From assembly GCA_963718525.1 (NCBI GenBank), contig OY970355.1:96001-160000 (forward strand): a stretch of 64,000 nt of DNA, given 5' to 3'. Below are positions 39,156 through 61,442 of this stretch, one piece after another; the stretch's first letter is position 1; the number at the start of each line of letters is the position of its first letter. The translations under genes and the position numbers were made by a program. Below the pieces are notes generated by a model. The model saw nothing but the letters and a program-made list of their open reading frames with translations. It was not told where the DNA came from and ran no database searches. The stretch is from Candidatus Dormiibacterota bacterium (lineage in GTDB: Bacteria; Chloroflexota; Dormibacteria; Aeolococcales; Aeolococcaceae).

Positions 39156-39184
39156 TCCAAGATACATTGCCGGATGCTGGCCTG
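39156..39184 (+). repeat. 29-bp array site
   Basis: TCCAAGATACAT-TGCCGG-ATGCTGGCCTG. Confidence 0.9.
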
Positions 39185-39434
39185 TTCTGGTACGCCATCG
39201 CTTGACCGCTTATGTCTTCAGGTCAACCTCCGGCGTTCACCCCGGCGCCAAGTTGGGCAGCGTCTTCGAAATCCAGTCACACGGCGCAGCCGGTCCATCA
39301 TCAGCCTGCTCGCCAATGGATTAACAGCAACGATATGCTTGACGCACCGGCCTAGGAACTCGGTGGGTGGAGCTTCTAGCAATCCGCGCCGCGCTAAAGC
39401 CGGAATTGCTCCGGAATGGGGAGTTGACCGAGAC

Positions 39435-39635
39435 CTAGTGCGTCAAGAAGCTTTCGGCCCGCTTCTTACGCCGGTGCTCGTCTAAGAAGGATAGGGGCGC
39501 TGCAATCGCGAGGCATATCCCCCCGCCAAGGAAGAGAGACCGTATCGGTTCCAAATTCCCAAAGATAACCAGCACGAGAACCGCTACGCCGAACGCACCT
39601 GCCAGTACGGACAACCCCCGGGCTATGGCTCGCAT
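39435..39635 (-). CDS. Small two-TM protein (cassette)
   Basis: 66 aa, two hydrophobic helices, basic tail. Confidence 0.55.
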   Translation of the reverse strand: MRAIARGLSVLAGAFGVAVLVLVIFGNLEPIRSLFLGGGICLAIAAPLSFLDEHRRKKRAESFLTH

Positions 39636-39958
39636 TCACACATCGTAGTCATTGGATCGTCCCCACGTCCACAGTTGTCCCTCGAACGGTGCGTCAGACC
39701 GGGGGCAAGGCTGGCGGCGCGGGAGGCGGTAGTGGTGGCGGCGGCGGGTTCGGCTTGCGCGTCGTGGCAATGGCGATCACTACCCCTACGATCGCCACGA
39801 CCACGATCACAAGCAGCAAGAAGAGGACGTAGTTCGGGGTTACTAAGGTGATCTCCGGATCCTAACCTACCGTTCCGACAACATAGGCAGGGTCATCGTA
39901 CGTAGCTACGTTACTGGCCTTCCGCTTCTCTCCATCGATGTGGACCCGACGGCATGCC

Positions 39959-39987
39959 CTCTGGGTACATTTGCCGATGCTCGCCTG
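39959..39987 (+). repeat. 29-bp array site
   Basis: CTCTGGGTACAT-TTGCCG-ATGCTCGCCTG. Confidence 0.9.
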
Positions 39988-40080
39988 CGGAACCTTTGCC
40001 TCCTTAAGCGTCTCCGAGTGGGCCAGGGCATTTACGGCGCCGAGTTGGTTGGTACTACCGTCGACCTGCCGCCCGCGCCC

Positions 40081-40521
40081 TTAAGTGTTGGACACCGGGC
40101 GAGGCGGGAGCGGAACCGTCGCTCCGTAGCTGCCGTCGACGATGGTGACATTCACTTGCTCGCTGGCATCGAGCGCTGTAGGGACCTGAATGATGGTCGT
40201 GGTCGCGGCTAGGTCGGCTGGACAGGCGGCGCCGTCGGGCGGGAGGTCGGTGGTCACCGTCACCGTGAGCGCGTCGTTCCCGGACACTTTGAGTCCACTT
40301 GGAAGGCCCGGGCACCCCGAGCTACCCCAAGTCAGCACCGCCATCTGGCCGGCTGTCACCCATAGGGCATTGTCGCGAACTCGCTCAGGAGACAACGTCA
40401 CGCCGGGTGGCAGACCGAGGTAGTGGCGCACCAGCCACGGAGGACTGGTTTCAGCACCGCAGGCGCCGGCGACAATTATCAGAACCGTCCCGGCTAGGAC
40501 GGACAAGAAACGCGGATTCAC
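40081..40521 (-). CDS. Putative lipoprotein (cassette)
   Basis: Lipobox VAGAC; TWGSSGCP and ACPADL motifs. Confidence 0.7.
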   Translation of the reverse strand: MNPRFLSVLAGTVLIIVAGACGAETSPPWLVRHYLGLPPGVTLSPERVRDNALWVTAGQMAVLTWGSSGCPGLPSGLKVSGNDALTVTVTTDLPPDGAACPADLAATTTIIQVPTALDASEQVNVTIVDGSYGATVPLPPRPVSNT

Positions 40522-40660
40522 GTGTGTAACGTATGCGAGACCAACCCATCGGCGAGGTTCAGGCGAGTGGATGACCCGTTGGCGAGCTAACTATGACTGC
40601 TATCGACCCCACGAAAGTGAGGTTGCGTAGCCCGGAACCTTCCAGGTTCGGCCTGCGCAG

Positions 40661-40689
40661 CTCAAGGTACATTTGCGGACACTGGCCTG
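40661..40689 (+). repeat. 29-bp array site
   Basis: CTCAAGGTACAT-TTGCGG-ACACTGGCCTG. Confidence 0.92.
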
Positions 40690-40701
40690 AGGAGGACCCG
40701 C

Positions 40702-41055
40702 CTATCCGGCCTTACGCCGAAGGCCTGCTGGAATCGCTGTCCAGACCGCTTCCCGATCGCGCTTGCGGCAGACGAAGGTGAGTTGCCGCGGCCGAGCAAA
40801 GAGCCAAGTCCATGGACCCCACCGGTGATGCCCTTTCACCCGCGCGCCGAAGCGAAACCGAATTCCACCACGGAAGGAATCGACTGAGCGGACCTGCGCC
40901 CAATCGAAGGGGAAGGTCGGAAGGAAGATGCTCAGGATGACAGCGGATGGTCCGATGGTCCAGCCCGTTTCGCTGAGACTCAGCCTTACCAGTGGCCATG
41001 TTGCGGTGCGACCCCACGTGGCGCGAATGCCGCCCACGAACGATTGGCTGCTCAT
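40702..41055 (-). CDS. Hypothetical protein (cassette)
   Basis: MSSQSFVGGIR...ATWPLVRL; fits between sites 40661 and 41097. Confidence 0.6.
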   Translation of the reverse strand: MSSQSFVGGIRATWGRTATWPLVRLSLSETGWTIGPSAVILSIFLPTFPFDWAQVRSVDSFRGGIRFRFGARVKGHHRWGPWTWLFARPRQLTFVCRKRDREAVWTAIPAGLRRKAG

Positions 41056-41096
41056 CGTCGTCCATTCTCCAGCGCCTTCGGGCCGCAGAGATCGCA

Positions 41097-41125
41097 ATCC
41101 GGCGACATTGGCGGATGCTGGCGTG
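41097..41125 (+). repeat. 29-bp array site
   Basis: ATCCGGCGACAT-TGGCGG-ATGCTGGCGTG. Confidence 0.9.
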
Positions 41126-41233
41126 ACCGAACGCCGCGTGTTCGGGAGTGGCGCTCCGCCAGCTCTCGCCACCCCTTCTTCCGCCGCGTCGATGGTTCGC
41201 TGTCCCCACGAGCCTATCGACCCATCGCTTCGC

Positions 41234-42600: not shown

Positions 42601-42629
42601 TCGTCGAGACATTCACGGATGCTCGCGCG
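42601..42629 (+). repeat. 29-bp array site
   Basis: TCGTCGAGACAT-TCACGG-ATGCTCGCGCG. Confidence 0.8.
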
Positions 42630-42694
42630 GGCGACCCTGCATGTCACTGGTGGGTGCCGGGCAAATTAAGGCTGAGATCGCTGAGCCGAAATGC

Positions 42695-43135: not shown

Positions 43136-43191
43136 CAGCGAAGCTGATCCTGTCACAGAAGTGACGGCTTAAGGCACGATTCCTCTGCCAT

Positions 43192-43220
43192 CTCAAGGTA
43201 CATTTGCGGATGCTGGCCTG
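43192..43220 (+). repeat. 29-bp array site (matches consensus)
   Basis: CTCAAGGTACAT-TTGCGG-ATGCTGGCCTG. Confidence 0.95.
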
Positions 43221-43252
43221 CGTCGCCGTCGCGTCCCTAGCCGAGAAGGTCA

Positions 43253-43969
43253 TCAGTCTACGGTCCAGTTCGTGCGAGACAAGTCTTGGAGTGATCCGGA
43301 CACACTATCGGCATGGGAATCCAGGGGCATTGGCTCCTCGATCGCCACGCGGATAGCCGACATTCCCAATTGTTTCGCGGGAGCGATGTCGAAGCACTCG
43401 GAGTTCCCGATCATCAGACACGCTTTGGAAGGGACCCCTGCTCGTTGCAGGGTCAGGTCGAAGAATCCTTTGCTCGGCTTGCGCCACCGAATATCGACTG
43501 ATGAGGCGACGACGTCAATTAGGCCGTCAAGCTCAAACGACCGAAAATCCGCCCAGTAATCGGCTTCGGTTCGCCAGATGGCGTTCGAGGCGATCACAAT
43601 CCTCGCGCGTCGCGCCTTGAGGACTGTTAGCAAAGCTCGTGCCCCCGGCAACAGGTGGGTAAAGGCCCTAGCCGGCAGGCAACTAGCCGAGCGGATTCTG
43701 TCAGCCTCGATGCCGGTAACGTTGGCGCAGCCCGTCGCCTCGTCAATTGCTTCCCACACATCGAAATACGAGGCGCCTACTGCTCGATCAATCACACGAT
43801 TAAGCTGCCTGCAAAGTTCGGCAGCTCGGTCCTCCGGGACACCCGCGCGGACCAAGCTTAGTCTCCATTCCGCGCTGTCTCGATCGACTGGGTTCAGCAC
43901 CGGCTGCGACCAGAGGGTTCCGCCCACGTCGACCCGTACGGCTCGCGGACCCGAGCTCGTGTCTTGCAA
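43253..43969 (-). CDS. HAD family hydrolase (cassette)
   Basis: DVGGTL motif I, WRKP, MIGNSECFDI. Confidence 0.85.
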   Translation of the reverse strand: MQDTSSGPRAVRVDVGGTLWSQPVLNPVDRDSAEWRLSLVRAGVPEDRAAELCRQLNRVIDRAVGASYFDVWEAIDEATGCANVTGIEADRIRSASCLPARAFTHLLPGARALLTVLKARRARIVIASNAIWRTEADYWADFRSFELDGLIDVVASSVDIRWRKPSKGFFDLTLQRAGVPSKACLMIGNSECFDIAPAKQLGMSAIRVAIEEPMPLDSHADSVSGSLQDLSRTNWTVD

Positions 43970-44050: not shown

Positions 44051-44079
44051 CGCCGGGTACATTCCCGGACCCTGGCCTG
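44051..44079 (+). repeat. 29-bp array site
   Basis: CGCCGGGTACAT-TCCCGG-ACCCTGGCCTG. Confidence 0.9.
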
Positions 44080-44255
44080 AGCGACGGTGGTCGGCTTGGT
44101 GGGAGGAACGGCCGGGCCCCGCTCAAGGCTCTCGGCAACACACGCGGCTCAGCGGAAACCGCTCTTCAAACCGGAACGTGATGAGCTCGATCCCAAGCCC
44201 TTCCTGAGAGTGACCGTTACCTTCTGGCCCCCTGCCGGGGTCATATGTGCAGAAC

Positions 44256-44798
44256 ATGGCAACGGACGAGCAGGAACTGCCCATGGGGAGGTCGGTCGGC
44301 GTGAGTTCCGAGGAGACCGCGAGCCACGACGAGGCGGCTTTCGAGAAGGCGCTCCTCGCCGCCCTACGACCGGCATTTCGAAGTCTCCGTGCCATCGGCC
44401 TGTCCGAAGAGGACGCTGCCGACGTACTGCAGGATGCCTCGATCCGTGCGTGGCGGCACCGCTCCCAGCGACAGGGTGACTTCGCGGCGTGGTTCATTGC
44501 CATCGCCTATCACGAGGCGCGGCGCCCGCACCGCCGCTGGCCCGCAATCCCGGTCCTATGGCAAGGAGCGAGGAGCTCATCGGAGCAGGAGTGGCGAAAC
44601 GATGACCTCGACCGCGCTCTGGCGCGGCTGCCGACGCGGCAGCGGACCGCGATCTCCCTGCGCTACGGCAGCGACCTGACGATTCTCGATGTCGCCCGCA
44701 CATTGCGCATCAGTGAGCCTGCAGCGAAGCAGTTGCTTGCTAGAGCACGCGAGTCACTCCGTCGAACGCTGTCATCGATTCCGAGAGGTGAGCCATGA
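44256..44798 (+). CDS. ECF sigma factor (cassette)
   Basis: DAADVLQDASIRAW; LARLPTRQR...DVARTLRISE. Confidence 0.88.
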   Translation: MATDEQELPMGRSVGVSSEETASHDEAAFEKALLAALRPAFRSLRAIGLSEEDAADVLQDASIRAWRHRSQRQGDFAAWFIAIAYHEARRPHRRWPAIPVLWQGARSSSEQEWRNDDLDRALARLPTRQRTAISLRYGSDLTILDVARTLRISEPAAKQLLARARESLRRTLSSIPRGEP

Positions 44799-46081
44799 GC
44801 GATGACTTCGATGTGATGTTGGGGACACTGAATTCCCGCCCCCTCACTCCGGCTGAAGAGGGCGCGCTCGCTCGGGTGGAGCTGTTCGTGTCTCGGCACG
44901 ACTTCGCGACGCCCCGACATCCGAGACTTGCGCTCGAGCTCCTCGTTGCCGGCGTCGTCGCCGCGGTGGCGATCACGTTGATCGTGGCGCTCACCCATCA
45001 TTCGGTTCCAACGCCAGCGCCCGCGGGCCACACTCCGGTGCCCATAGCCTCCGCAACCGCGAGCCCTCCCGCTCCAACGAGCCCGCGTCTGGGGCCGGCT
45101 ATTCCGTTGCGCATCACGCAGCAACTGAGCCTTGGCAGCTTCCAGGCCAACGCGATAACCGTTGGTCTGGGCAGCGTGTGGGTTGCAGCTCATAGTCCGG
45201 TATATGGGGACACGGGCAGACTTTTTCGCGTCGATGCGTCGTCGTCTCGCCAGACTGGATACTGGACGGTCGGGGGAGACCCGGAGGCGGTTTCGGCCGC
45301 CGGCAGCTACGTCTGGGTGGCCAACGGCTTCGGCGATGGTTCGCGCGTGTTGCCCGATCAGAACACGGTCATGCAGTTCAACGCTGTCACCGGAGCTCTG
45401 GTGCACGTGTATCGAATCACGAGCCCCATCGCCCTGGTGGCGAATGGAAGCGGCGTACTCGTCGTGTCCTCGCGTACGCAAAATGGTCCGACCGACATAT
45501 ATCTCCTGACCGCCGGACGGTCATCGCTCGTCGCGACCGTGGCGGGGATCTTGCAGGGTCCTTCGCTGTCGGCTGAGGCCGCACTCGCCGTCTGTGGTGG
45601 CCAGGTATACCTGGGCGTGAGCGAGCTGTCTGCGAGCGGACTTCAGACCATCAACATCTACGCGGTCCGCCTGGGCGGCGGACCTGTGCGGAGCCTCGCG
45701 ACGATTCAGCGTGCGTACTGGCCGGTGATGACATGCGATACCAACGCCCTCTACGTCTTCGATGGGGCCGGAGATCTTCCGGTGCTGGTGAGCCCTGTGG
45801 ACGGCAGGACGCGCACGATGCCCGAAGGGTCGGGCGCTTCGGCAGCCGCATTCGAATCCGGGTTCATCTGGCAATTGCACAACGCTTATGGTCCCTCGGG
45901 ATCGCAGGGATCGCAGGGATACCTGTCCGCGCTGGACCCGAACACTGGCCTGGAGTCATCGTCCCGCCTCGCGATTCCGGGCACTGCGTCGTCCGAGGTG
46001 TTCCTACTCGCCCCGGTTGCGTCCGGCTTGTGGGTCGTCGGCGGCAACGAGGCCCTGCTTCTGCACGTGACTTTCGGCTAG
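44795..46081 (+). CDS. Single-TM protein with extracytoplasmic beta-propeller, probable anti-sigma partner
   Basis: ATGA overlap with sigma gene; TM, Pro-rich linker, GSVWVA/YVWVAN repeats. Confidence 0.7.
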   Translation: MSDDFDVMLGTLNSRPLTPAEEGALARVELFVSRHDFATPRHPRLALELLVAGVVAAVAITLIVALTHHSVPTPAPAGHTPVPIASATASPPAPTSPRLGPAIPLRITQQLSLGSFQANAITVGLGSVWVAAHSPVYGDTGRLFRVDASSSRQTGYWTVGGDPEAVSAAGSYVWVANGFGDGSRVLPDQNTVMQFNAVTGALVHVYRITSPIALVANGSGVLVVSSRTQNGPTDIYLLTAGRSSLVATVAGILQGPSLSAEAALAVCGGQVYLGVSELSASGLQTINIYAVRLGGGPVRSLATIQRAYWPVMTCDTNALYVFDGAGDLPVLVSPVDGRTRTMPEGSGASAAAFESGFIWQLHNAYGPSGSQGSQGYLSALDPNTGLESSSRLAIPGTASSEVFLLAPVASGLWVVGGNEALLLHVTFG

Positions 46082-46279: not shown

Positions 46280-46308
46280 CTCGAGGTACATTCGCGGACC
46301 CTCGCCTG
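46280..46308 (+). repeat. 29-bp array site
   Basis: CTCGAGGTACAT-TCGCGG-ACCCTCGCCTG. Confidence 0.92.
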
Positions 46309-46347
46309 TGCCAGCGTTGCCTGCTTCACGCCTTCCGATAGGCGAAT

Positions 46348-47075: not shown

Positions 47076-47645
47076 ATGGAACGCATGCGTGACCGACTTG
47101 CCCGATGGAGCCAGGCAACCATCTACCCTGACATGTGGGCTGACCCGAATGACGATCCCCGCAGCAGCGAAGGAGTCGGTGGCGACGGCGAGCTAGCGAC
47201 GCTGCAGGACTACCTGACGAGGTACCGGATGACCCTGCGGATGAAGTGCGAGGGCCTCTCTCCGGAACAACTGGCCCGTCGGTCGGTTCCGCCGTCGACG
47301 ATGTCGCTGCTGGGGCTGCTCCGCCACCTCACCGAAGTGGAACGGGATTGGCGCAACTGGATCAGCGACGGCGATTCGCTACCGAAGCTGTACGGCGAGC
47401 GGGACGCGGACTTCGAGGGTGCTGTTGCCGAACAGGCGGAGGTCGATGCTGCATACTCCGCTCTCGCGCGCGAGCAGGCCGGGACCGACGCCGTGCTGGC
47501 CCGACACCTGGATCTCAGCGAGCGTCTGGGGAAGGACGGAATCGCCGTTCGCGAGCTGATGGTGCACAGGATCGAGGAGTACGCCCGTCACTGCGGGCAC
47601 GCCGACCTCTTGCGCGAGTGTATCGACGGAAGGGTCGGCCAGTGA
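47076..47645 (+). CDS. DinB/DUF664 family protein
   Basis: STMSLLGLLRHLTEVERDW, EEYARHCGHADLLRECIDG. Confidence 0.9.
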   Translation: MERMRDRLARWSQATIYPDMWADPNDDPRSSEGVGGDGELATLQDYLTRYRMTLRMKCEGLSPEQLARRSVPPSTMSLLGLLRHLTEVERDWRNWISDGDSLPKLYGERDADFEGAVAEQAEVDAAYSALAREQAGTDAVLARHLDLSERLGKDGIAVRELMVHRIEEYARHCGHADLLRECIDGRVGQ

Positions 47646-48439: not shown

Positions 48440-48468
48440 CTCCAGCGACATGAGCGAATGCTCGCTTG
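48440..48468 (+). repeat. 29-bp array site
   Basis: CTCCAGCGACAT-GAGCGA-ATGCTCGCTTG. Confidence 0.8.
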
Positions 48469-48654
48469 CCCAAGCGCCACGACATGTGGCAACCGGCCGG
48501 CCGAATCTGCTCGCTCCCGGGAGTCCCCTTGACGTGGCGAGGCGGGACCGCTGACGCCGGCCCTGAGCATCCCTCAGCCCGTCTCAACCGCCTTGGTCGC
48601 CCGTGATCCCGCCGACGAGGCGCCGTCAGAACACGCGGTTGATAGATTCGCCAC

Positions 48655-49995: not shown

Positions 49996-50020
49996 CTCAA
50001 GGCACATTCGGCTAGGCCTG
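49996..50020 (+). repeat. Truncated array site
   Basis: CTCAAGGCACAT-TCG-GCTAGGCCTG; right half overlaps the stop of the next gene. Confidence 0.7.
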
Positions 50021-50395: not shown

Positions 50396-50602
50396 CAAAC
50401 GGTTCCTCCATGGTGGTCGGCGGTTGCGAAGTGTCCATGTATCGGCATCGCCTGTCAATAGTGCTCGATGGTGGCGACTGCCATGACAGGCGACGACCTC
50501 CGGCATGACCGCGGGGCGAGCCACTCGGGCGGTCGCCGCCCGGGAGGTCGGCCCTGGTCGCGCGGCTATCGGGGCCTTCGGCCCAACGTCATGCTTGGTA
50601 CT

Positions 50603-50857
50603 GTGCGGCATGCAACGCAGGAAGACCTTGATCAGGTCGAGCCACTACTGGTGGAGCTCCGCAAGCTTCCCCAGTTGCGAGAGCGCAAGCGTGGTTCCTT
50701 CTCGAGGGGCTCCCGGCCGTTTCTTCACTTCCACGAAGACGGCGGCGAGCTTTACGTCGACGTGAGACTCGACGGCGCGTTCCGTCGCGCGAAAGTCACC
50801 AGCGGCAAGGACCAGGCCGATCTCCTCGCACGTGTGCGCGGGGAGCCACTGGAGTGA
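50603..50857 (+). CDS. Small conserved hypothetical protein
   Basis: LRERKRGSF...FLHFHED..LYVDVRL. Confidence 0.65.
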   Translation: MRHATQEDLDQVEPLLVELRKLPQLRERKRGSFSRGSRPFLHFHEDGGELYVDVRLDGAFRRAKVTSGKDQADLLARVRGEPLE

Positions 50858-50869
50858 TATCACTGACCG

Positions 50870-51859
50870 ATGGTGGCCGAAACGATGACCGGTGTCCGTG
50901 AAGAGCAACCATCCGGCAAGCCCCCGGCACTGATTGTCGACCACCTCACCAAACGCTTCGGCGACCGCATCGCGTTCGACGACGTTTCGTTCTCTGTGGC
51001 ACAGGGCGAGGTGTTCGGGTTCCTGGGACCCAACGGGGCCGGGAAGACGACCACGGTTCGCACCCTGGGGACGCTGATCGCACCAACGTCGGGCTCGGCG
51101 AGTGTCGCCGGCATTCCGTTGACCTCGGACAACGGGCCGGAGATCCGCCAGCGCATTGCGATCATGCCGGAAAACCCGGGCCTGTACCGGCGTCTCACGG
51201 TGATGGAGAACCTCCAACTCTTTGCCGGTCTCTACGAGCAGCACAACGCGGCTGCTCGGATCGGCGAGGCACTCGAAGCGGTCAACCTGACAGCGCGTGC
51301 ACACGATCTGTGCGGAAGTCTTTCCAAGGGACTGCTGCAACGGGTTGGACTGGCTCGGGCGTTGCTCAACGACCCTGCGGTCATGTTTCTCGACGAGCCA
51401 ACGTCCGGGTTGGATCCCGTCGCGACGCGTGAGGTGAACGACCTCATCAACGGACTCCGCCAGCGCGGGGTCACGGTGTTCCTCACCACCCACCGCCTCG
51501 AGGAGGCGGAGCGGCTGTGTGACCGCGTCGCGATCCTCAACACCACGCTCCGCCTGGTGGGGCGGCCCGACGAGCTCCGTGAGCGGCTTTTCAGCCGCTC
51601 GCTGGTTGTCGAGACGTTACATCCGCTCGGCGCGCCAGATGACGTCTTCAACAGCACCGACGGCGTCGAGAGCTGGCGAACCGATGGACCGAGCAGTTAT
51701 GTGCTGAGTGTCACCGATCCAAGGAAGATCGCCCCGCAGGTGGCCCGAGCACTCGTTGCCGCGGGTGCCGACGTGGTCTCGATCAGCGAGTCGCGTCACT
51801 CCCTCGAGGATGTCTACCTGCAGTTGATCGACGACGACCCGGAGGCATCACCTCGATGA
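50870..51859 (+). CDS. ABC transporter ATP-binding protein
   Basis: GPNGAGKTT, LSKG, FLDEPTSG. Confidence 0.93.
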   Translation: MVAETMTGVREEQPSGKPPALIVDHLTKRFGDRIAFDDVSFSVAQGEVFGFLGPNGAGKTTTVRTLGTLIAPTSGSASVAGIPLTSDNGPEIRQRIAIMPENPGLYRRLTVMENLQLFAGLYEQHNAAARIGEALEAVNLTARAHDLCGSLSKGLLQRVGLARALLNDPAVMFLDEPTSGLDPVATREVNDLINGLRQRGVTVFLTTHRLEEAERLCDRVAILNTTLRLVGRPDELRERLFSRSLVVETLHPLGAPDDVFNSTDGVESWRTDGPSSYVLSVTDPRKIAPQVARALVAAGADVVSISESRHSLEDVYLQLIDDDPEASPR

Positions 51860-52677
51860 AGTTCAGCTTCAGACGTCTGGGGGCGGTGCTGCGCAAAGAG
51901 CTCCGAGAATACCGGCGCAGCCCCTTCATCCTCGTGACCATGGCGGTGCTCCCGCTCGTGTTTCTTATCGAACCCTTGTTGACCATCTTTCGCATCGGCC
52001 CGTTGGTCGCGGCTAGTACGGTGGATAAGGCCGTCAGCGCCACGTTTCTCGTACTGCTGATTGCGCCTGCTTTGCTGCCCGCTGTCATTGCCTCGTACTC
52101 CGTGGTCGGCGAGCGCGAGCAAGGCACCCTCGAACCCCTGTTGACCACCCCGCTGCGTCGCGAGGAGCTGCTGCTGGGCAAGGCGATCGGCGTGGTTGTT
52201 CCCGCGGTCGGTATCGCCTATGTGCTCTTCGCGATCATCCAAATCTGCGCCCAACTCTTCGCGAGCAATCCGGAAGTGGTGTCAGCTCTGGGACAAGGCC
52301 CACATATCGCGGCGGAGATTCTCTTCGCACCGCTGCTGGCGGGTTGGTCGATCTGGGTGGGCATCGGCATCTCGACGCGAGCGAGCGACGTTCGTGTCGC
52401 GCAGCAGTTGGGGACGTTGTCGAGCCTGCCGCCGCTCGCGGTCGTGGCCTTGGTGTCCTTCAACGTCTTCACTCCGAGCGTCACGCTCGCGGTGGTGTTC
52501 GCGCTTGTCCTCTTCGCGGCCGACGTCATTCTGTTTCGCTTCGTCGCGGCCCTGTTCGATCGCGAGCGGCTCATCACCGGCGCGTCGGCGCATCGAGGGC
52601 CGAGCGGCGGCGGTCAGGGCCCACCCTCCGGTGCGGTTCGACGGATACCACGCATGACAGGTAGCGGCGATGGGTGA
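51856..52677 (+). CDS. ABC transporter permease
   Basis: VGEREQGTLEPLLTTP motif, 6 TMs. Confidence 0.9.
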   Translation: MKFSFRRLGAVLRKELREYRRSPFILVTMAVLPLVFLIEPLLTIFRIGPLVAASTVDKAVSATFLVLLIAPALLPAVIASYSVVGEREQGTLEPLLTTPLRREELLLGKAIGVVVPAVGIAYVLFAIIQICAQLFASNPEVVSALGQGPHIAAEILFAPLLAGWSIWVGIGISTRASDVRVAQQLGTLSSLPPLAVVALVSFNVFTPSVTLAVVFALVLFAADVILFRFVAALFDRERLITGASAHRGPSGGGQGPPSGAVRRIPRMTGSGDG

Positions 52678-53198
52678 CGGCACCGGTGATCCTGCCCAAG
52701 ATCCGCGATCCGCGGTTCATCACAGTGCGTCGCGGCGGGATCCTCCAAGATGACGATCATCGCCTTCTCGCGATATGGGCGGCTGACTGCGCGGAGCATG
52801 TGCTGAAGCACTTCGAGCAGGCACGACCGAAGGACGATCGTCCGCGGCGGGCGATCGTCCTCGGGCGTGCCTGGGCGCGGGGTGAGATCACGTGGCAAGA
52901 GGCCCGCACCGCGGCTGGTCACGCAAACGCCGCGGCCAGGAAGCTGAGTGGTACAGCACGGTATGCCGCGTACGCTGCCGGCCAGGCCGCTGCGGTGGGC
53001 CATGTCGCAGCCCACGAACTCGGAGCCGCGGCGTACGCGATCAGGGCGGCGCGAGCGGCCGCGACTGACGACGACCGCGTCGAGGCAGGCCGTTTGGAGT
53101 GCCAGTGGCAGCGCGCTCGACTCCCCGACGAGATCCGAGAACTTGTGCTTGACGACCAGCGGCTGCGCAACGAGTTGTGCTGGTTTGCCTTCGACTGA
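52674..53198 (+). CDS. Imm-5-like putative immunity protein
   Basis: WAADCAEHVL..FE..P.DDRPR, AGQAAAVGHVAAH. Confidence 0.8.
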   Translation: MTAPVILPKIRDPRFITVRRGGILQDDDHRLLAIWAADCAEHVLKHFEQARPKDDRPRRAIVLGRAWARGEITWQEARTAAGHANAAARKLSGTARYAAYAAGQAAAVGHVAAHELGAAAYAIRAARAAATDDDRVEAGRLECQWQRARLPDEIRELVLDDQRLRNELCWFAFD

Positions 53199-53478
53199 CA
53201 CGGCGTTGGCGGGGCGCGTGTCGCGGGTTTGTGGAGAGAATGCTCGCCTGGGCAGGCGCTTTCTTGTTAGAGGCTCTCGATTCGGGTCGGACCGCATCAC
53301 CGATGCGGACGCCCGCCAGGATCGCGACCGTCTGCAGGTCCGACGGCTAGCGCTCCCAGCACCTCCTGACCTGGGTACAGTAGCGACCACTCGGAGCCTC
53401 GGGCATTGCCAAACCATCCCGCGACAGGGCAGATGACATCAGGCGGAGCCACACCATGGAGCACCATTTCGTATCACC

Positions 53479-54174
53479 GTGTTGATGGCGCTACTGGACG
53501 ACGCAGCATATCGCGCCCGTCGCGGACGATACTCAGACGCTGTAATTCAAGCGCAGGGCGCACGGATAGCTAAGGCCAACTCCCCCAAACTCAAAAAACT
53601 GTTGCCGGCGGATATCCTTTTCTTCCACACAAGGCCGTCTGTCGTAAGTTGGATGGTCATGTATGTCACGGGCAGCATCTGGAGCCATACGGCTATGTAT
53701 GTCGGCGATGAACTCGTGACCGATGCGACCTCTATCGGCGTAAGGAGGCATCCTCTGGCAGATTATTTCAACGGAGAGTCGTCTTTCTCTGCGCGTCGGC
53801 CTCCCTTCTCTGAAGGAGGCGCAGAACGTGCAGTGGATGCCATGAACTCAAAGATCGGCAAGCCCTACGGGTGGACCATGGTGCTACTGATCGGATGGCA
53901 ATCCATTGTAGGTGCGCGGCGAGAATTCGATGGGCGGCATGCGGTCGACGTGCTCTTCTCGCTTGCTGTCTTATCCGTCCCGGCGGCCTTATGGCGACCC
54001 TGGGCTTCCATCACCGGGCTCATCGCAACGTTGTATCTAGTTACGCTTGCCCGAAACCGCGCTGCCTGGCTCGCCGTTCGGAAGGAAACGTCATCCGATT
54101 CCAACTCCCGGCCCGTTCCCGTTGTATTGCCTCGGTATACCCGGCGGTGGAAGCAGCGTGCTCAGCGTGGATAG
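53479..54174 (+). CDS. Permuted papain-like (YiiX/YebB-like) domain with C-terminal TMs (cassette)
   Basis: PADILF, WSHTAMYVG, KIGKPY; catalytic Cys region not evident. Confidence 0.6.
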   Translation: MLMALLDDAAYRARRGRYSDAVIQAQGARIAKANSPKLKKLLPADILFFHTRPSVVSWMVMYVTGSIWSHTAMYVGDELVTDATSIGVRRHPLADYFNGESSFSARRPPFSEGGAERAVDAMNSKIGKPYGWTMVLLIGWQSIVGARREFDGRHAVDVLFSLAVLSVPAALWRPWASITGLIATLYLVTLARNRAAWLAVRKETSSDSNSRPVPVVLPRYTRRWKQRAQRG

Positions 54175-54184: not shown

Positions 54185-54214
54185 GTCAAAGTACATTTCC
54201 GGATACTTGGCCTG
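54185..54214 (+). repeat. Array site (1-nt insertion)
   Basis: GTCAAAGTACAT-TTCCGG-ATACTTGGCCTG. Confidence 0.85.
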
Positions 54215-54326
54215 GTGCGAGGGGCTCGTCTTCCAGCGGTTCACGAGCGTCGTAAACGTGTCCCACCGAAACCGGTGGTAGGGATGGCCGTGTAGCGTCG
54301 GATAGCAGTCGGATACTCCGCCCGTC

Positions 54327-54719
54327 CTAGCCCCGAGGTGCGAAGAACTCGAGTGCGATGTTGTCGGGGTCTCGAAATGACAATGCCGAGTAGGAAGGTG
54401 CGTCCACGATGCCACCGTTGGGGATGCCGAGCTCGTTCAGGCGGATTTCCCACACTTCTAACTCATCGCGGTTGGTACAGCCGAAAGCCAGATGATCGAG
54501 ACCCGGCCGGCGCTCGTTGAACGGCTGAGTGCTGTTCAAATCAGGGAACTGAGTTAGACCGACGAGTGTGCCGCTCGTAAGCCAAGCGACACGCTGGAAA
54601 GGACCTGTGTCCTCGTCAAGGATCGGGTCCGAGCCGAACAGGGCCTTGTACCAAGGCACACTCCGTTCGAGGCTCGTAACCGTTAGCGCCACGTGAGTAA
54701 TCGCAGGGAACTCTGGCAT
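54327..54719 (-). CDS. VOC/glyoxalase family protein (cassette)
   Basis: ITHVALTV, GLDHLAF, FRDPDNIALE. Confidence 0.92.
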   Translation of the reverse strand: MPEFPAITHVALTVTSLERSVPWYKALFGSDPILDEDTGPFQRVAWLTSGTLVGLTQFPDLNSTQPFNERRPGLDHLAFGCTNRDELEVWEIRLNELGIPNGGIVDAPSYSALSFRDPDNIALEFFAPRG

Positions 54720-54951: not shown

Positions 54952-54980
54952 CTCGGGTGACATTAACGAACCCTGCCATG
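54952..54980 (+). repeat. 29-bp array site (diverged)
   Basis: CTCGGGTGACAT-TAACGA-ACCCTGCCATG. Confidence 0.7.
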
Positions 54981-55046
54981 AGAGAGAGTTGGCTCACTCG
55001 AGGTTCGGGGCATTCGCTGTTCGGGCAGAATGACTGACCTGCAGAT

Positions 55047-55565
55047 ATGGAGCCTGGTACCGGCGACGTCGTGGTGAGGCGGATACGTCCTGAGGATTGG
55101 GCGGTCACGCGATCCCTCCGTTTGCGCGCCCTCGCCGACGCCCCGTATGCCTTCGCCAGAACCTACCAGGAGGAGTCAGTGCGGCCGGATGCTTTCTGGA
55201 TCGATCGGGCGGTCGTCGCATGCACGGGCAAGAGCATCGCCACTTTCCTAGCGTTCGATGGTCACGAGCCAGCCGGAATCACGACGGGAATAGTGGACGA
55301 TGGCGGCCAGCCGCAACTCGTCTCTATGTGGGTCGATCCCGTTTTGCGCGGTCGCCGCCTCGGCGAATCGTTAGTCAACGCGGTAGTTCAGTGGGCGCTC
55401 GACGGTGGGTTCGAGCAACTCTCACTTTGGGTGAGCGAGGACAACGGTCCCGCAATCCGTCTGTACCAACGGGCGGGCTTCCAATCCACCGACCGGACAG
55501 ATGCGCTCCGACCGGGCTCAGAGGTCCGGATCAGGATGTGGGTGCGCCATCTCAACGCCGTCTGA
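55047..55565 (+). CDS. GNAT N-acetyltransferase (cassette)
   Basis: SMWVDPVLRGRRLG, NGPAIRLYQRAGF. Confidence 0.92.
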   Translation: MEPGTGDVVVRRIRPEDWAVTRSLRLRALADAPYAFARTYQEESVRPDAFWIDRAVVACTGKSIATFLAFDGHEPAGITTGIVDDGGQPQLVSMWVDPVLRGRRLGESLVNAVVQWALDGGFEQLSLWVSEDNGPAIRLYQRAGFQSTDRTDALRPGSEVRIRMWVRHLNAV

Positions 55566-55602: not shown

Positions 55603-55631
55603 CTCTGGCGACATTGGCGGACCCTGGCCTG
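55603..55631 (+). repeat. 29-bp array site
   Basis: CTCTGGCGACAT-TGGCGG-ACCCTGGCCTG. Confidence 0.92.
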
Positions 55632-55730
55632 CGCGAGGTTCATGTTTCTGGTTGCCGTGCTCGTGGGAAACGCGGCCACAGGTCGTCAGTTCCCGAGGCA
55701 TGCTCGGACCGTTGTGGGCCGTCCTGATCG

Positions 55731-56177
55731 ATGGCTGCGAGACTACGCTCCGTGTCCTCCACATGTCGGCCCTACCGGCTCAGCGACGCCGAAGCCCTCC
55801 TGTCGCTCTGGGCTCTTTGCGGGCTCACGCGCCCGTGGAATGATCCGTATCGGGACATCGAGCGCAAGATCGGGGTCGACCCCAACGGCCTTCTAGTGCT
55901 TGAGGATGGCAGTCGATTGGTCGGCGCCGTCATGGTCGGTTATGACGGCCATCGCGGATGGATCAACTACCTGGCGGTACATCCGGATCATCGCCGGTGT
56001 GGGTTGGGCAGTGTCCTTATGGCGGCCGCCGAGCAGCGGCTGGCAGAGCTCGGCTGCCCGAAAGTGAATCTGCAGGTTCGTGCCTCTAACCAGGAAGCGG
56101 TGGCCTTCTATCGCCGCATTGGCTACAGCGTGGATGACGTAGTGAGTATGGGACGACGTCTCGAGAACGACAGCTGA
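55731..56177 (+). CDS. GNAT acetyltransferase, YpeA-like (cassette)
   Basis: LTRPWNDP, GYDGHRGWINYLAV, GCPKVNLQVR. Confidence 0.9.
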   Translation: MAARLRSVSSTCRPYRLSDAEALLSLWALCGLTRPWNDPYRDIERKIGVDPNGLLVLEDGSRLVGAVMVGYDGHRGWINYLAVHPDHRRCGLGSVLMAAAEQRLAELGCPKVNLQVRASNQEAVAFYRRIGYSVDDVVSMGRRLENDS

Positions 56178-56190
56178 GACGGCGCACCGG

Positions 56191-56219
56191 CTCAAGGGAC
56201 ATTCGCAGACCCTGGCGTG
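56191..56219 (+). repeat. 29-bp array site
   Basis: CTCAAGGGACAT-TCGCAG-ACCCTGGCGTG. Confidence 0.92.
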
Positions 56220-56289
56220 AGGGAAAATGGTCGGCTTTCGGCTGCCGGACCCTCCTAGTGCGCGACCGTTAGGTCTGCCTCACCCTACG

Positions 56290-56526
56290 TCAGGCTAAGG
56301 GCTGATAGCCGGTCCATCGGGGTTTTCGACGGAGCCACCCGCGGGTTCGGTTGCTTGGGCGGGTACCCGGCGGAGGTGCCCCGTCAGCCGTTAGAACCTG
56401 AATACACAGGACGACGCACTCATCGCAAATGCAAGCGCCTTGCCCAGTAATCAACTTACCCACATGCTCCTCCGACCTGCCGCAGAAAGAGCACCGGGGC
56501 TGCCCGCGCCGTTCTCCAGGTCCCAT
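56290..56526 (-). CDS. Stand-alone ClpX C4-type zinc finger protein (cassette)
   Basis: CSFCGR...[12 protein letters not shown]. Confidence 0.8.
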
Positions 56527-56619: not shown

Positions 56620-56648
56620 CTCAAGGTGGCTTTGCGGATATTGGCGTG
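56620..56648 (+). repeat. 29-bp array site (diverged core)
   Basis: CTCAAGGTGGCT-TTGCGG-ATATTGGCGTG. Confidence 0.8.
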
Positions 56649-56811
56649 AGGAGCCGCTGCCCCGTTCGGACAACTCACCGCAGCACATGTATGACCCATT
56701 AGCGCACCCCGCTCCGCTGAAGATGGCCTAACCCGCGTCGTCGACCTCCAAGCCGAACTAGCATCGACTTATGAGGTTGACCCTAACGATCAGGTCATCA
56801 ACCATCGCCAG

Positions 56812-57226: not shown

Positions 57227-57255
57227 CTCGAGGTACATTCGCGGATGCTCGCATG
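57227..57255 (+). repeat. 29-bp array site
   Basis: CTCGAGGTACAT-TCGCGG-ATGCTCGCATG. Confidence 0.92.
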
Positions 57256-57298
57256 CGCAAGAGCCTTCCGCGTTCGGTGGAAAACAACGCTCCTACGA

Positions 57299-58014: not shown

Positions 58015-58043
58015 TTCCGGGTACATTTGCGGATACTCGCCTG
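58015..58043 (+). repeat. 29-bp array site
   Basis: TTCCGGGTACAT-TTGCGG-ATACTCGCCTG. Confidence 0.92.
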
Positions 58044-58071
58044 CGACACAGTTCTCAGGTTTGAGGCTGGT

Positions 58072-58369: not shown

Positions 58370-58408
58370 CACCGGATCATTGTCCCTCCCTCCCGCTATC
58401 CGCGAGCA

Positions 58409-58437
58409 CTCTGGGAACCTTGGCGGATGCTGGCATG
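58409..58437 (+). repeat. 29-bp array site
   Basis: CTCTGGGAACCT-TGGCGG-ATGCTGGCATG. Confidence 0.88.
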
Positions 58438-58528
58438 CGCCAAGCGGCCCTCCTCTGGCCCAGATCCGCTTCCCCTGACTGCGAATAGGTAGTGTCGCTG
58501 AACTGGGTTGGCCACTAGGATCTGCTGT

Positions 58529-58777: not shown

Positions 58778-58779
58778 CC

Positions 58780-58808
58780 TGAACGAGACACTGGCGGATG
58801 CTCGCGCG
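58780..58808 (+). repeat. 29-bp array site
   Basis: TGAACGAGACAC-TGGCGG-ATGCTCGCGCG; begins 3 nt after a stop codon. Confidence 0.8.
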
Positions 58809-58930
58809 GCCCAGGCTCTAAGTTGTCGATGCGGGATACGCTCTGCCGATGAGTTCCACCGAATCGGACGACAGATAGGTGGATGCTGTCCTCGCTGCAG
58901 TCATAGAGACTCGGACACAAGGAGCCACCG

Positions 58931-59326
58931 ATGACGCTGCGTAAGCTCAATCCCTCTGCACTGCCGACCCCTACCGGCTATTCACAGGTTGTCGTGGCAG
59001 CCGGCTCCCGAACGGTCTTCATCGCCGGACAGGTGGCGCTCGATCGAGACGGCGGACTTGTCGCACCCGGGGACGTCGTCGGCCAGGCTCGCCAAGCGTT
59101 CGCGAATATGCGAATTGCGATCGAGGCAGCCGGAGCGGCAATCGACGATGTGACCAAGATAACCTGGTACGTGGTCGGCTACCGGCCGGAGTGGCTTCCC
59201 GAGCTGGCGGCCGCCCGCAATGAGGTGCTCGGCGGGCATATGCCAGCGAGCACATTGGTGGGTGTAGGCGCTCTCGCCCAGGACCACTTTCTCGTTGAGG
59301 TCGAAGCGGTAGCTGTGATCGACTAG
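58931..59326 (+). CDS. RidA family protein (cassette)
   Basis: GYSQVV, FIAGQVA, PASTLVGV, VEVEAVA. Confidence 0.92.
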   Translation: MTLRKLNPSALPTPTGYSQVVVAAGSRTVFIAGQVALDRDGGLVAPGDVVGQARQAFANMRIAIEAAGAAIDDVTKITWYVVGYRPEWLPELAAARNEVLGGHMPASTLVGVGALAQDHFLVEVEAVAVID

Positions 59327-59429
59327 ACGAAGAGACGCTGTACTGAAGCGACGTTCGGCCGATGAGGCGCATATGGGGCCCCCGTTGTTCGGTTTGCCCC
59401 GTGCACCGATGTATCTCCCACTGGTACCG

Positions 59430-59458
59430 CTCCAGCGACATTGGCGGATGCTCGCGTG
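59430..59458 (+). repeat. 29-bp array site
   Basis: CTCCAGCGACAT-TGGCGG-ATGCTCGCGTG. Confidence 0.92.
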
Positions 59459-59637
59459 TCCGCCCAACTTCTGCCTGCGGAGGTGAAATGTTGCCCTGCC
59501 AGGCGCGGGTAATAGCCTGACGGCGACAGCAGCGTGCACGCGCCCGATGGGCGAAAATGCGCCCGGGTCCGAGCTACTGAACCTCCGGCGAGGCCGTCCA
59601 GTTTCACTGACGACACCGGGCTGCCCCAGTCCTAGTC

Positions 59638-60129
59638 TCAACTCGCGGTTTCGTTGGTGGCGACTGCCCGAGCGAGCTGCCCGAGATGCTCTTGCTCATG
59701 CGACGCCATGTCGCCGGCGAGTCGCAACATCGACACCTCGCCAAAGTCCGTCTGGACGGAAGACGTCCACTCGTGGTTGGAGAGTCCGAGCAGGAGACCG
59801 ACCAGTTCGCGGCGCCGCAGAGTGAAGGCTCGGACCTGATCAGCCGCCGACAGGCCAGCCCTGGCCAGCAAGTCGCCGTATGTGCGCTCGTCCAGTCCGA
59901 GATGGACACCGTCGGGGCGTATCAGCCAGTTCCAAATCCGAGACGCAACGATCAGATCACTAGCGCGGACGTGCCTGAGGACTTCCAGCGGCGACCAGTC
60001 ATCGGGAGCTGGGCGACGACCGAACTCGGCCTCACCTAAGTGGGAAAGGGCAGCTTCGAATTGCTGGGGGCTTTCCGCCAGGATGGCGATACAGCCCTCG
60101 ACCGCATGCGACTCTGGCTCAGACCTCAC
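59638..60129 (-). CDS. DinB family protein (cassette)
   Basis: PAPDDWSPLEVLRH, HEQEHLGQL. Confidence 0.85.
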   Translation of the reverse strand: MRSEPESHAVEGCIAILAESPQQFEAALSHLGEAEFGRRPAPDDWSPLEVLRHVRASDLIVASRIWNWLIRPDGVHLGLDERTYGDLLARAGLSAADQVRAFTLRRRELVGLLLGLSNHEWTSSVQTDFGEVSMLRLAGDMASHEQEHLGQLARAVATNETAS

Positions 60130-60202
60130 TCGCTGATTCTGTCTGATCTTCTGCTATCAAAGATGGAACGCCGGATACGCCGCGGCCCGAAAACGTACCC
60201 GC

Positions 60203-60231
60203 CTCTGGGGACATTGGTGGATGCTGGCATG
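60203..60231 (+). repeat. 29-bp array site
   Basis: CTCTGGGGACAT-TGGTGG-ATGCTGGCATG. Confidence 0.9.
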
Positions 60232-60381
60232 GGCGAGCGACCCGGAGATTGAACTCCGCCATCGCTGCGATCTTTCGCTGCCGCCACCGGAGACGGGATC
60301 GCGGTCGCGACGCGATAGCGGGGATGCAACACTTCAAGTGGGGCCGCATGGTTACGAGCGCGGCCGAACTAAGCTGGCGGG

Positions 60382-60861
60382 ATGGCCGAAGAGCGACCAG
60401 GTCGGCTGACCGCGCTTCGACGCGGTCTTCACCGCCTAACGCGGGAGCATCCAGCGGCGTGGGCCGGGCTCGGGATCACGTGCCTTGCTGGCCTGGTGAT
60501 CGTGGCAGCCTTCCCCGGCGCCTCTTCGGGTTCAAAACGCGTCAACCCTAAGGTTTCACTCCCGCCGGGTATGGGCGCCGTAGTCGGTGGCATCGAAGCG
60601 TGCTATGACAGCGGTCCTCCACCGGGCGGCTACCCGTGGGTGGCGGGTTCGGTTGCTCTGTATGCCGCGGGGGACCGCGATTTCCTCAAGCCAATCGCAA
60701 TTGGTACCGCAGCACCCAACGCAGATTTCGTCGTGCTGGCTTCGCCTGGTGACTACGAACTCGCGGCCTACGCGGGCCTTTCCAACCCGGCGGTCTCAGT
60801 GACTGTGCGGAGCGGGAACATTACCTTCCAAGATCTTCGCTCGAATGGTGGATGCATCTGA
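60382..60861 (+). CDS. Membrane-anchored protein with carboxypeptidase-regulatory-like domain (cassette)
   Basis: TM; GAVVGGIEAC, SPGDYEL, VTVRSG, terminal Cys. Confidence 0.65.
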   Translation: MAEERPGRLTALRRGLHRLTREHPAAWAGLGITCLAGLVIVAAFPGASSGSKRVNPKVSLPPGMGAVVGGIEACYDSGPPPGGYPWVAGSVALYAAGDRDFLKPIAIGTAAPNADFVVLASPGDYELAAYAGLSNPAVSVTVRSGNITFQDLRSNGGCI

Positions 60862-60869
60862 GTTCGTGG

Positions 60870-60898
60870 CTCAAGGGACATCGGCGGATGCTGGCGTG
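60870..60898 (+). repeat. 29-bp array site
   Basis: CTCAAGGGACAT-CGGCGG-ATGCTGGCGTG. Confidence 0.92.
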
Positions 60899-61044
60899 CG
60901 CTGCGATCATCGTGTTTGGCCTCGATGCTGGTTCCTAAGCGCGGCCTCGTACACGCTTCCGACTGGAATCACCGTTGCTGCTACGGATCGCGTTCAGCCC
61001 CGCGTGGTTCGCGCTGGGGACCAGGCCCGAGCTAGCATCGACCC

Positions 61045-61308
61045 ATGGGCACACTCGCGAACATTCTTCGGGTAGCGTCCGTGCCGGTGGGTGTCTTGAT
61101 TGGTCTGTGGACCGCGCACCTTACAAGCCTTCCGAGCAGCTACCGATGCCCAGTTGACGCTTTCTGCCTCCCCTTGAATTTCTATTTGAGGCCCACCTTC
61201 GCGATGTGGCAATGCGTCTTGTTCGGTGCAGGCGCTGCTGCCGTCTTGCTCCTAATGTCCTTTGCGGTGGCGCGCTTGCCGAGCGCAAGGCCGCTCACCG
61301 CGGCCTGA
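61045..61308 (+). CDS. Small two-TM protein with Cys loop (family member 3)
   Basis: VASVPVGVLIGLWTA...CPVDAFC...FAMWQC. Confidence 0.7.
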   Translation: MGTLANILRVASVPVGVLIGLWTAHLTSLPSSYRCPVDAFCLPLNFYLRPTFAMWQCVLFGAGAAAVLLLMSFAVARLPSARPLTAA

Positions 61309-61413
61309 AGGCGTTATCCGTCGCCTCGTCTCGTCCAAACAGCCCAACTCCGTCTCGTCCAGCCACCTTGAGTGCGTTCATCTCTGCGGCATAGAACGGC
61401 TGGCCGACGTTGG

Positions 61414-61442
61414 CTCAAGATACATTCGCGGACCCTGGCTTG
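61414..61442 (+). repeat. 29-bp array site
   Basis: CTCAAGATACAT-TCGCGG-ACCCTGGCTTG. Confidence 0.92.

Follow-up and report, generated by a model that had tools for sequence, protein, structure and literature searches.

A co-oriented array of sites and genes

The DNA considered here is a stretch of 64,000 nucleotides (the window) from a Candidatus Dormiibacterota bacterium, positions 96,001 to 160,000 of contig OY970355.1 (G000:C1:96001-160000 in our labels); its source genome, G000, is a single contig of 3.34 Mb. Downstream of a PolX-like gene the window holds an array in which copies of a short repeated site, all in the same orientation, alternate with mostly single genes. We argue that this is probably an integron-like cassette array built on a new kind of double-stranded site and served by a putative tyrosine-type recombinase. 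The repeat family exists and its copies are hybrids; both findings are well supported. At the left border, homology to 38 of 41 other genomes of the genus stops at about window position 37880, and the next segments match unlinked loci elsewhere. In an empty-site comparison 3′ of the PolX gene a proto-site was not recognizable.

A hidden Markov model (HMM) of the site, built from 22 window copies and scanned against G000 with nhmmer, finds 23 copies in the window, all on the plus strand. The pattern GGTACATNNNNNNATG, given in a preliminary description of this DNA, matches eight times with up to one mismatch, whereas 100 shuffles give 1.18 matches on average and at most 4. A core pattern has 35 forward and 3 reverse matches in G000, where the reversed-pattern control has 5 and 6. 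Array 1, to which the window copies belong, comprises 31 plus-strand nhmmer matches (27 with an E-value of 0.01 or less) at genome positions 134550-168316 (∼34 kb), from 38.5 kb in the window to 8.3 kb beyond its end (genome 168.3 kb); all 28 array 1 sites in the layout count are on the plus strand. Array 2 consists of five matches at 2747504-2750087, and a lone strong copy lies on the minus strand at 2204339. Outside the arrays, the 3.3 Mb yield seven weak matches, six with E above 4 and one with E of 0.02.

Beyond G000 the site is restricted to the genus. Of 24 other genomes of the genus, 21 contain the core pattern, mostly in clusters; none of 16 genomes of the sister family does (a set that includes G027 and G036, flagged as unpublished). 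In a wider scan, with one genome per species, 27 of 27 loci with at least two matches, among the matches listed, belong to metagenome-assembled genomes (MAGs) of Dormibacterota; single matches in other taxa are at the chance level for that pattern. Loci and genome stretches used for comparison have labels beginning with L; the scan loci extend 2 kb to each side of each site. Orientation is uniform in 17 of the 18 loci holding at least two sites (148 sites in total over the 18 loci); the median spacing between sites is 702 bp, and 105 of 128 spacings are of 1500 bp or less.

Details of the site come from an information profile and a covariation test on 135 distinct sites. Numbering follows the HMM, with position 1 lying 9 nt before each listed site start; the conserved unit spans positions 10-59, that is ∼50 nt, and is longer than the 29-mer originally taken as the unit. 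Its consensus reads cTCnrGskACATTnrCGGAyv, CTsGCcTG, ngcnA, six free letters and ycTcnCynGr. The CT at positions 31-32 is invariant, while positions 28-30 take the forms ATG, ACC, ACA, ATA and ATC (T at 29 in 103 of 135 sites, G at 30 in 86 of 135). A CAT-N6-ATG dyad, which the preliminary description placed at the core, is therefore not a feature of the family: ATG is one of several variants, there is no covarying stem among the position pairs of the 135 sites (the best mutual information, 0.22 between 23 and 30, joins positions that are not complementary), and single-stranded folding of 12 window sites is no better than that of shuffles (z from −1.13 to +1.70). Nor is the outer CTCA...TGAG symmetry conserved, since it needs an A at position 39, present in only 27 of 135 sites. 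The profile has no inverted symmetry between the left arm ACATTnrCGGAyv and the right arm ngcnA..., and the inverted arms of 11-13 bp expected of a dif-, loxP- or FRT-like site are absent; no Rfam family reaches its gathering score in window 37000-64000. Lacking dyad, stem and folding, the site is an asymmetric, unstructured sequence word.

Three further observations concern the sequence of the site. In two registers (10, 13, 16 and 30, 33, 36, 39, 42) the variable positions are spaced three bases apart. The minus strand reads ATG-[S/Y]-[L/P]-[E/D] from position 21, and open reading frames (ORFs) of at least 150 codons begin at this ATG in 24 of 306 sites, against 15 and 7 in control frames. 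A coding explanation for the repeat was rejected: no long ORF crosses the copies consistently, and the minus-strand ATG frame is not enriched. Finally, a minority subfamily carries GTCAGGGGTGATTG in place of cTCnrGskACATTnr (window 38549-38598, L020 2146, L007 17432, L015 4217); the array of G000 begins with such a site, and in L020 one adjoins a large serine recombinase gene.

Sites are hybrids of neighboring cassettes

All pairs among 421 distinct site windows, drawn from 304 loci, were compared over the 50 nt on either side of the site. Thirty-two pairs, forming 24 connected components, are homologous on the left only (left flank at least 86% identical, the other flank unrelated); 28 pairs, forming 14 components, are homologous on the right only; ten are homologous on both sides. 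In all left-only and all right-only pairs the break falls inside the site. This is the outcome of a check proposed in the preliminary description, namely to find where the identity of homologous cassettes ends, and it upholds the claim made there that each site is a hybrid of neighboring cassettes.

The two classes of pair divide the site. Identity at positions 13-30 is 0.81-0.97 in left-only pairs, compared with 0.29-0.55 in unrelated pairs; at positions 39-44 it is 0.19-0.66, approximately chance except at position 43 (0.66 versus 0.42). Right-only pairs show the converse, with identities of 0.86-1.00 at positions 39-44 and near-chance values at positions 13-30, position 29 excepted. Judged by these natural recombinants, positions 10-30 travel with the left cassette and positions 39-59 with the right. 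Linkage between site positions (242 sites, p<0.01) has the same structure: 13 of 28 position pairs are linked within the left block (13-30), compared with two of 48 between left and right, one of 16 between left and middle, and none of 12 for middle and right. This was another check proposed in the preliminary description, and it shows the left and right variants to be unlinked.

Individual cases are instructive. The left flank of site 55603 is 100% identical to that of L021 895, in another genome, through position 30, and its right flank is unrelated. The right flank of site 39959 is homologous to that of a site in another genome that has a different left neighbor, and the left flank of site 59430 is 90% identical to that of a site of the same array 8.1 kb downstream, beyond the window. 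Elsewhere, one 636-bp cassette occurs in two arrays of a single genome with ∼94-97% identity and different neighbors on both sides (L007 4267-4903, L012 9673-10308), and one glyoxalase cassette has five different left neighbors.

The evidence for reassortment originally cited from within the window fares less well. The strings quoted at 46280, 57227, 40661, 43192, 56191 and 60870 are all present, and the site starts given there agree with those derived from the HMM. However, the supposedly identical left parts (46277/57224 and 40658/43189) have unrelated upstream flanks, and so these pairs are look-alike site variants rather than shared cassette ends. The place of exchange also moves. It had been put in a TNGCGG spacer (positions 22-27), but positions 23, 24, 29 and 30 travel with the left cassette and exchange falls between 30 and 39; the ATG/ACC triplet belongs to the left block, and its positions 29-30, assigned to the right arm, are linked to position 23.

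From the same comparisons the exchange region can be placed at 4-8 bp inside CTsGCcTG (positions 31-38). Within it, with one pair taken per component, the two sites agree at both positions 33 and 36 in 15 of 24 left-only components and in seven of 14 right-only ones, against a fraction of 0.21 in unrelated pairs. That these positions follow either side rules out a single fixed crossover; two cuts fit. The natural recombinants would bracket the cuts at 30-33 and 36-39, giving an overlap of 4-8 bp. Such a staggered exchange is what a tyrosine recombinase would leave when its partners differ in the overlap.

Cargo, islands and insertion elements

The layout of the array in the window is given in Table 1. 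Short units carry one Pfam-supported gene each, with ∼10 genes on the plus strand and 5 on the minus strand; since all 23 window sites are on the plus strand, this argues against a signal for transcription or translation. The Imm5-like gene adjoins a weak papain-like C92 amidase match (window 52674-54171), and the two may be a toxin-immunity remnant.

Table 1. Sites and genes of array 1 within the window (site scores from nhmmer; gene assignments from Pfam).
Feature	Position	Strand	Evidence and remarks
PolX-like gene (HHH_8 + PHP)	36801..37877	+	Pfam; conserved flanking gene, array region starts just past its stop codon
Weak variant site, GTCAGGGGTGATTG... subfamily	38549..38598	+	13.4 bits; first of array
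Cassette site	39156..39205	+	26.6 bits; exchange region 39177-39184
Cassette site	39959..40008	+	28.9 bits
Cassette site	40661..40710	+	33.1 bits; left-only homology with L021 3787
Cassette site	41097..41146	+	28.7 bits
Cassette site, diverged	42601..42650	+	21.0 bits
Cassette site	43192..43241	+	34.3 bits
HAD-family hydrolase cassette gene	43256..43969	-	PF13419/PF00702
Cassette site	44051..44100	+	25.1 bits
Cassette: extracytoplasmic function (ECF) sigma factor (44247-44795), then 428-aa ORF without family match	44247..46078	+	Sigma70_r2/r4
Cassette site	46280..46329	+	30.4 bits
Mycothiol-S-transferase (MST)/DinB family cassette gene	47076..47642	+	PF04978, 5.9e-37
Cassette site, diverged	48440..48489	+	23.6 bits
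Long unit (48.5-54.2 kb) without recognized internal site	genes 50015..54171	both	Pfam
SnoaL-like gene in long unit	50015-50611	-	Pfam
ABC ATPase and ABC-2 permease in long unit	50870-52674	+	Pfam
Imm5-like immunity protein in long unit	52674-53195	+	E 1.4e-37
Weak papain-like C92 match in long unit	53479-54171	+	25.2 bits, below cut-off 27
Cassette site, diverged right half	54185..54234	+	18.6 bits; left-only homology with L032
Glyoxalase/VOC family cassette gene	54330..54719	-	PF00903
Cassette site	54952..55001	+	19.5 bits; both flanks identical to L021 244
GNAT acetyltransferase cassette gene	55047..55562	+	PF00583
Cassette site, clearest hybrid	55603..55652	+	29.1 bits
GNAT acetyltransferase cassette gene	55731..56174	+	PF00583, 3.4e-22
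Cassette site	56191..56240	+	28.0 bits
Small protein, ClpX-type C4 zinc finger, cassette gene	56293..56526	-	PF06689
Cassette site, diverged	56620..56669	+	19.4 bits
Cassette site, best-scoring copy	57227..57276	+	35.7 bits; exchange region 57248-57255
Cassette site	58015..58064	+	31.1 bits
Cassette site	58409..58458	+	28.0 bits
Cassette site, diverged	58780..58829	+	16.9 bits
RidA/L-PSP family cassette gene	58931..59323	+	PF01042
Cassette site	59430..59479	+	28.1 bits
DinB_2 family cassette gene	59641..60129	-	PF12867
Cassette site	60203..60252	+	29.8 bits
Cassette site	60870..60919	+	28.5 bits
Cassette site, last in window	61414..61463	+	31.7 bits; further sites follow past window
Diphthamide-synthase-like ATP-binding protein, cassette gene	61455..62216	+	PF01902

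There is a tendency for sites to be found downstream of a tRNA gene, in antiparallel orientation to it. A tRNA-Gly(CCC) lies 6.8 kb from array 1 and a tRNA-Gly(GCC) 3.3 kb from array 2; in other genomes sites lie 1 kb from a tRNA-Asp (G010:C4), 110 nt from a tRNA-Phe (G014:C43) and 5 kb from a tRNA-Thr with an integrase in between (G019:C3). At ten other loci no tRNA was found in the stretch examined, some of these stretches ending at contig ends. In the case of array 2, a 7-kb segment (G000 2746465-2753505; L002 8465-15505) runs from the tRNA-Gly(GCC) to an exact 45-nt copy of its 3′ end and contains a decayed integrase fragment together with the whole five-site array, which therefore sits in an integrated island. 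At three tRNA-plus-integrase loci elsewhere (two tRNA-Val and one tRNA-Gly(CCC); L016, L326 and L322) a single antiparallel site lies 2-4 kb behind the integrase, and at L016 the tRNA 3′ end recurs as an exact 45-nt copy on the far side of the site, which places that site inside the island. The 50-bp site itself has no tRNA sequence: the 45-nt tRNA 3′ repeats bound islands and not the junctions between cassettes. On our reading, tRNA-targeting islands seed the arrays.

Between integrase and first site, three islands with two integrase families share a conserved module of 870 bp (L006 8604-9471, L016 7206-8077, L326), 91% identical within one genome. One of its frames has a CxxC...FCxxxC zinc-ribbon-like motif; its translations are otherwise of low complexity and without family match, and the module is absent from G000. 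The sites are also targets of other elements: IS110-family insertion sequences (IS) lie inside sites at L013 (G010:C13; ∼7690-6353 and ∼10000-8770) and L010 (5539-4490), the right end abutting ...GCAT|CATT (positions 19-22) in constant orientation. Insertions at CATT explain the 'TCATT' site variants seen in several genomes.

Two neighboring segments are recorded here as side observations. Directly beyond a 36-site array (L008 14086-18386; G016:C12) lies an operon resembling a cyclic oligonucleotide-based antiphage signaling system (CBASS), with SMODS cyclase, SAVED-TIR effector, ThiF/E1-like and JAB genes. In G000 an aldo-keto reductase segment of ∼1.5 kb (L001 13873-14817; genome 173873-174817) lies between the tRNA-Gly(CCC) and a conserved 182-aa ORF; it is missing from that interval in the other genomes compared, and no cassette site flanks it.

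Mechanism, alternatives and relation to known systems

We propose that the sites would be double-stranded site-specific recombination sites bounding mobile, mostly single-gene cassettes in a chromosomal gene-capture array. Each cassette would begin with the right part of a site, continue with a single gene on either strand and end with the left part of a site, and recombination between two full sites would insert, excise or reshuffle cassettes. The two cuts of a staggered exchange would fall between positions 30 and 33 and between positions 36 and 39, with the overlap coming from either partner. Integrative islands that target tRNA genes and carry a site would seed arrays, which would then grow there. 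The class of the enzyme, circular cassette intermediates and the seeding by islands are parts of this scheme that we infer.

The enzyme itself was sought without success near the array. Pfam finds no Phage_integrase match and no recombinase gene in window 34-64 kb, and thus the candidate recombinase that the preliminary description hoped to assay has no counterpart beside the array. The nearest, rec1, is a Xer-like gene 7 kb to the right of array 1 with orthologues in only seven of 24 genomes of the genus; in three genomes rec1 lies 1-6 kb from the same PolX gene with no site in between. Its sparse distribution and the site-free PolX-rec1 interval show that there is no tie between rec1 and the array. 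Another unusual tyrosine recombinase (genome 2594499-2595368) occurs in only four of the 24 genomes, and the resolvase, IS110 and Y1 transposase genes of G000 are far from the arrays, the Y1 gene being without a match. With no recombinase adjoining the arrays, the putative tyrosine recombinase would act in trans.

Several observations weigh against this proposal. In one left-only pair the break is at 15|16 and so outside 31-38; at the level of pairs, positions 33 and 36 look more left-linked than right-linked; and the pairs are partly interdependent. As many of the genomes compared are MAGs, some junctions could be assembly chimeras at the repeat, a concern that is reduced by the short exact stretches that copies share and by G000 being a single contig. 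No circular or excised form of a cassette was seen in public runs, which are available as contigs only: 85-98% of the sampled words are present in four runs of a single study, and the contigs of these include seven joints, all at sites, with sides of 21-29 nt that are too short to count as excision. The flanks of 12 further arrays encode ordinary housekeeping genes. Of the eight tyrosine and three serine recombinases of G000, none has a tblastn match within 2 kb of a scan-locus site, except for one serine recombinase end. Lastly, the site lacks the inverted binding arms of classic tyrosine-recombinase core sites.

Three specific alternatives concern the enzyme. The enzyme could be the integrase of the site-carrying tRNA-targeting islands (the family of G000 2205410-2206405), the island then being the platform that supplies integrase, acceptor site and cassettes. 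Members of this family are found in 14 of the 24 genomes of the genus and in none of the 16 of the sister family, the same clade limits as those of the sites; the order tRNA, integrase, antiparallel site recurs at L016, L326 and L322; the decayed integrase by array 2 is homologous to the family; and the lone G000 site lies 1 kb from the G000 family member. Yet the integrase already has another site, a 45-nt tRNA 3′ segment unlike the 50-bp site, most arrays have no integrase nearby, and ten of the 24 genomes are without a match although 21 have sites. Moreover, the clade-level match amounts to a single phylogenetic contrast, and the integrase that accompanies the array of island L006 is from a different family, so that we regard this identification as unlikely. 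A host XerC/XerD-like pair, recombining the sites as proposed for the pdif modules of Acinetobacter plasmids, would explain the lack of an array-linked enzyme: among tyrosine recombinases, only two Xer-like ones (318 and 352 aa) are likely to be present throughout the genus, and an exchange region of 4-8 bp fits the 6-bp Xer center. Against this, the site has neither an 11-6-11 dyad nor an ATAA-N6-TTATG core (no canonical dif was found in G000), the sites are co-oriented rather than alternating, and the sister family has Xer-like genes but no sites; Xer-dependence thus seems to us decidedly unlikely. The invariant CT at 31-32 could instead mark a 2-nt staggered cut at a fixed dinucleotide by a large serine recombinase or an IS110-type RNA-guided recombinase. 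Large serine recombinase genes do adjoin three arrays (L020, L206, L014), a length of ∼50 bp suits serine integrase sites, and IS110-family elements are present in arrays. Such a cut nevertheless predicts that positions 33 and 36 stay on one side, contrary to the component counts given above; the three serine recombinases, 32-37% identical to one another, are not orthologous and lie on different sides of their arrays; and the IS110 insertions are at CATT and not within 31-38. We consider this improbable.

Two further alternatives concern the nature of the repeat. The repeat could be a REP-like (repetitive extragenic palindromic) or regulatory element – a promoter, terminator or operator – with a mosaic structure produced by homologous recombination or replication slippage. 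The strong sequence conservation of the left block, the minus-strand ATG at positions 21-19 with which some minus-strand ORFs start, and the period-three variability would suit such a role. However, breakpoints cluster in 8 bp despite longer invariant stretches further left, copies are confined to arrays (the seven weak matches mentioned above apart) and co-oriented whatever the strand of the gene, no hairpin forms, and the ATG frame is open for at least 60 codons in 74 of 306 sites, against 58 and 75 in control frames; the explanation is highly improbable. An ordinary integron array without a nearby integrase (a cluster of attC sites lacking integron integrases, CALIN), with unusual attC sites, would account for small co-oriented cassettes, for integron-typical cargo (GNAT, glyoxalase, DinB, RidA, immunity proteins) and for IS110-family insertions in sites. 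But the sites neither fold nor have covarying stems, RYYYAAC/GTTRRRY boxes are absent from their consensus, exchange is spread over 4-8 bp instead of falling at one point, and cassette genes are on both strands. An integron integrase is absent from G000, the best TIGR02249 score being 40.2 bits against a cut-off of 265, and the recombinase nearest array 1 scores 22 bits. This possibility we regard as negligible.

The proposed cassette array can now be set beside known systems. It is quite possible, if short of probable, that it represents a new gene-capture platform, with asymmetric double-stranded sites of ∼50 bp, staggered exchange over 4-8 bp, a trans-acting tyrosine recombinase (possibly a genus-restricted island integrase) and IS110 parasites of its own. 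In the literature on integron-like, CALIN, pdif and IS1111-attC systems we found no published description of the 50-bp site. A short, sequence-conserved site whose exchange region has been narrowed to 8 bp makes the proposal directly testable with two-site substrates and few candidate recombinases; the site is also usable as a probe to recover the cassette pool of these bacteria from soil metagenomes.

Strand exchange at loxP, FRT and dif, the core sites of tyrosine recombinases, occurs at two points 6-8 bp apart, flanked by inverted binding arms. Sites of the pdif type are 28-bp dyads (11-6-11) in alternating orientation on plasmids. Like the sites described here, they are short double-stranded sites that bound small accessory modules, depend on a trans-acting, non-adjacent enzyme and have a central region of a few bp; in contrast, the sites here are asymmetric, co-oriented and chromosomal, with no dif-like core and with the host dif not identified. 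The available text of two sources describes dif modules bounded by pdif (XerC/XerD) sites in Acinetobacter plasmids (PMC6449649, PMC7399989). A second parallel, already visible in array 2, is tandem accretion at tRNA genes: there too chains of small, integrase-poor cargo units lie downstream of a tRNA, and array 2 is inside such an island, but no tRNA sequence is part of the 50-bp site, and there are arrays away from tRNAs. In accretion of that kind (cis-mobilizable elements, tycheposon-type islands) the junction repeat is the tRNA 3′ end, the integrase's own att.

IS1111-attC elements, reportedly described by Tetu and Holmes in 2008, offer a likeness of another sort. The IS110-family elements here are likewise inserted at one fixed place (CATT) in one orientation; their target is the new site and not attC, and they are parasites of the sites rather than part of the cassette mechanism. 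Target-specific IS110/IS1111 elements as a group are treated in the available text of PMC11187229.

The closest comparison is with sedentary integrons and CALIN. The likenesses are long arrays in one orientation, small cassettes mostly of a single gene, hybrid sites at the junctions, cargo of the detoxification, acetyltransferase and immunity type, arrays without an adjacent integrase, and parasitism of the sites by site-specific IS110/IS1111-type elements. An attC site is an imperfect palindrome that folds as a single strand, with R''/L''-L'/R' boxes (RYYYAAC ... GTTRRRY), and is recognized by IntI, which has an extra domain; there is a single crossover point, one strand is exchanged, and the product is resolved by replication. 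Where attC folds, has R and L boxes and recombines at a single G|TT point, the site here is ∼50 bp long, conserved in sequence, unfolded and exchanged over 4-8 bp; where integrons have IntI, this genome has none, its cassette genes are on both strands, and the arrays are found within or next to tRNA-anchored islands. Integrons, the textbook system of gene capture, are concentrated in Proteobacteria. A description of integrons in Dormibacterota was not found in the literature, and the available text of one source has them nearly absent from Actinobacteria and Firmicutes (PMC9024848). An array of ∼31 cassettes with a simple double-stranded site would mean that an abundant uncultured soil phylum shuffles its accessory genes in modular fashion by other means.

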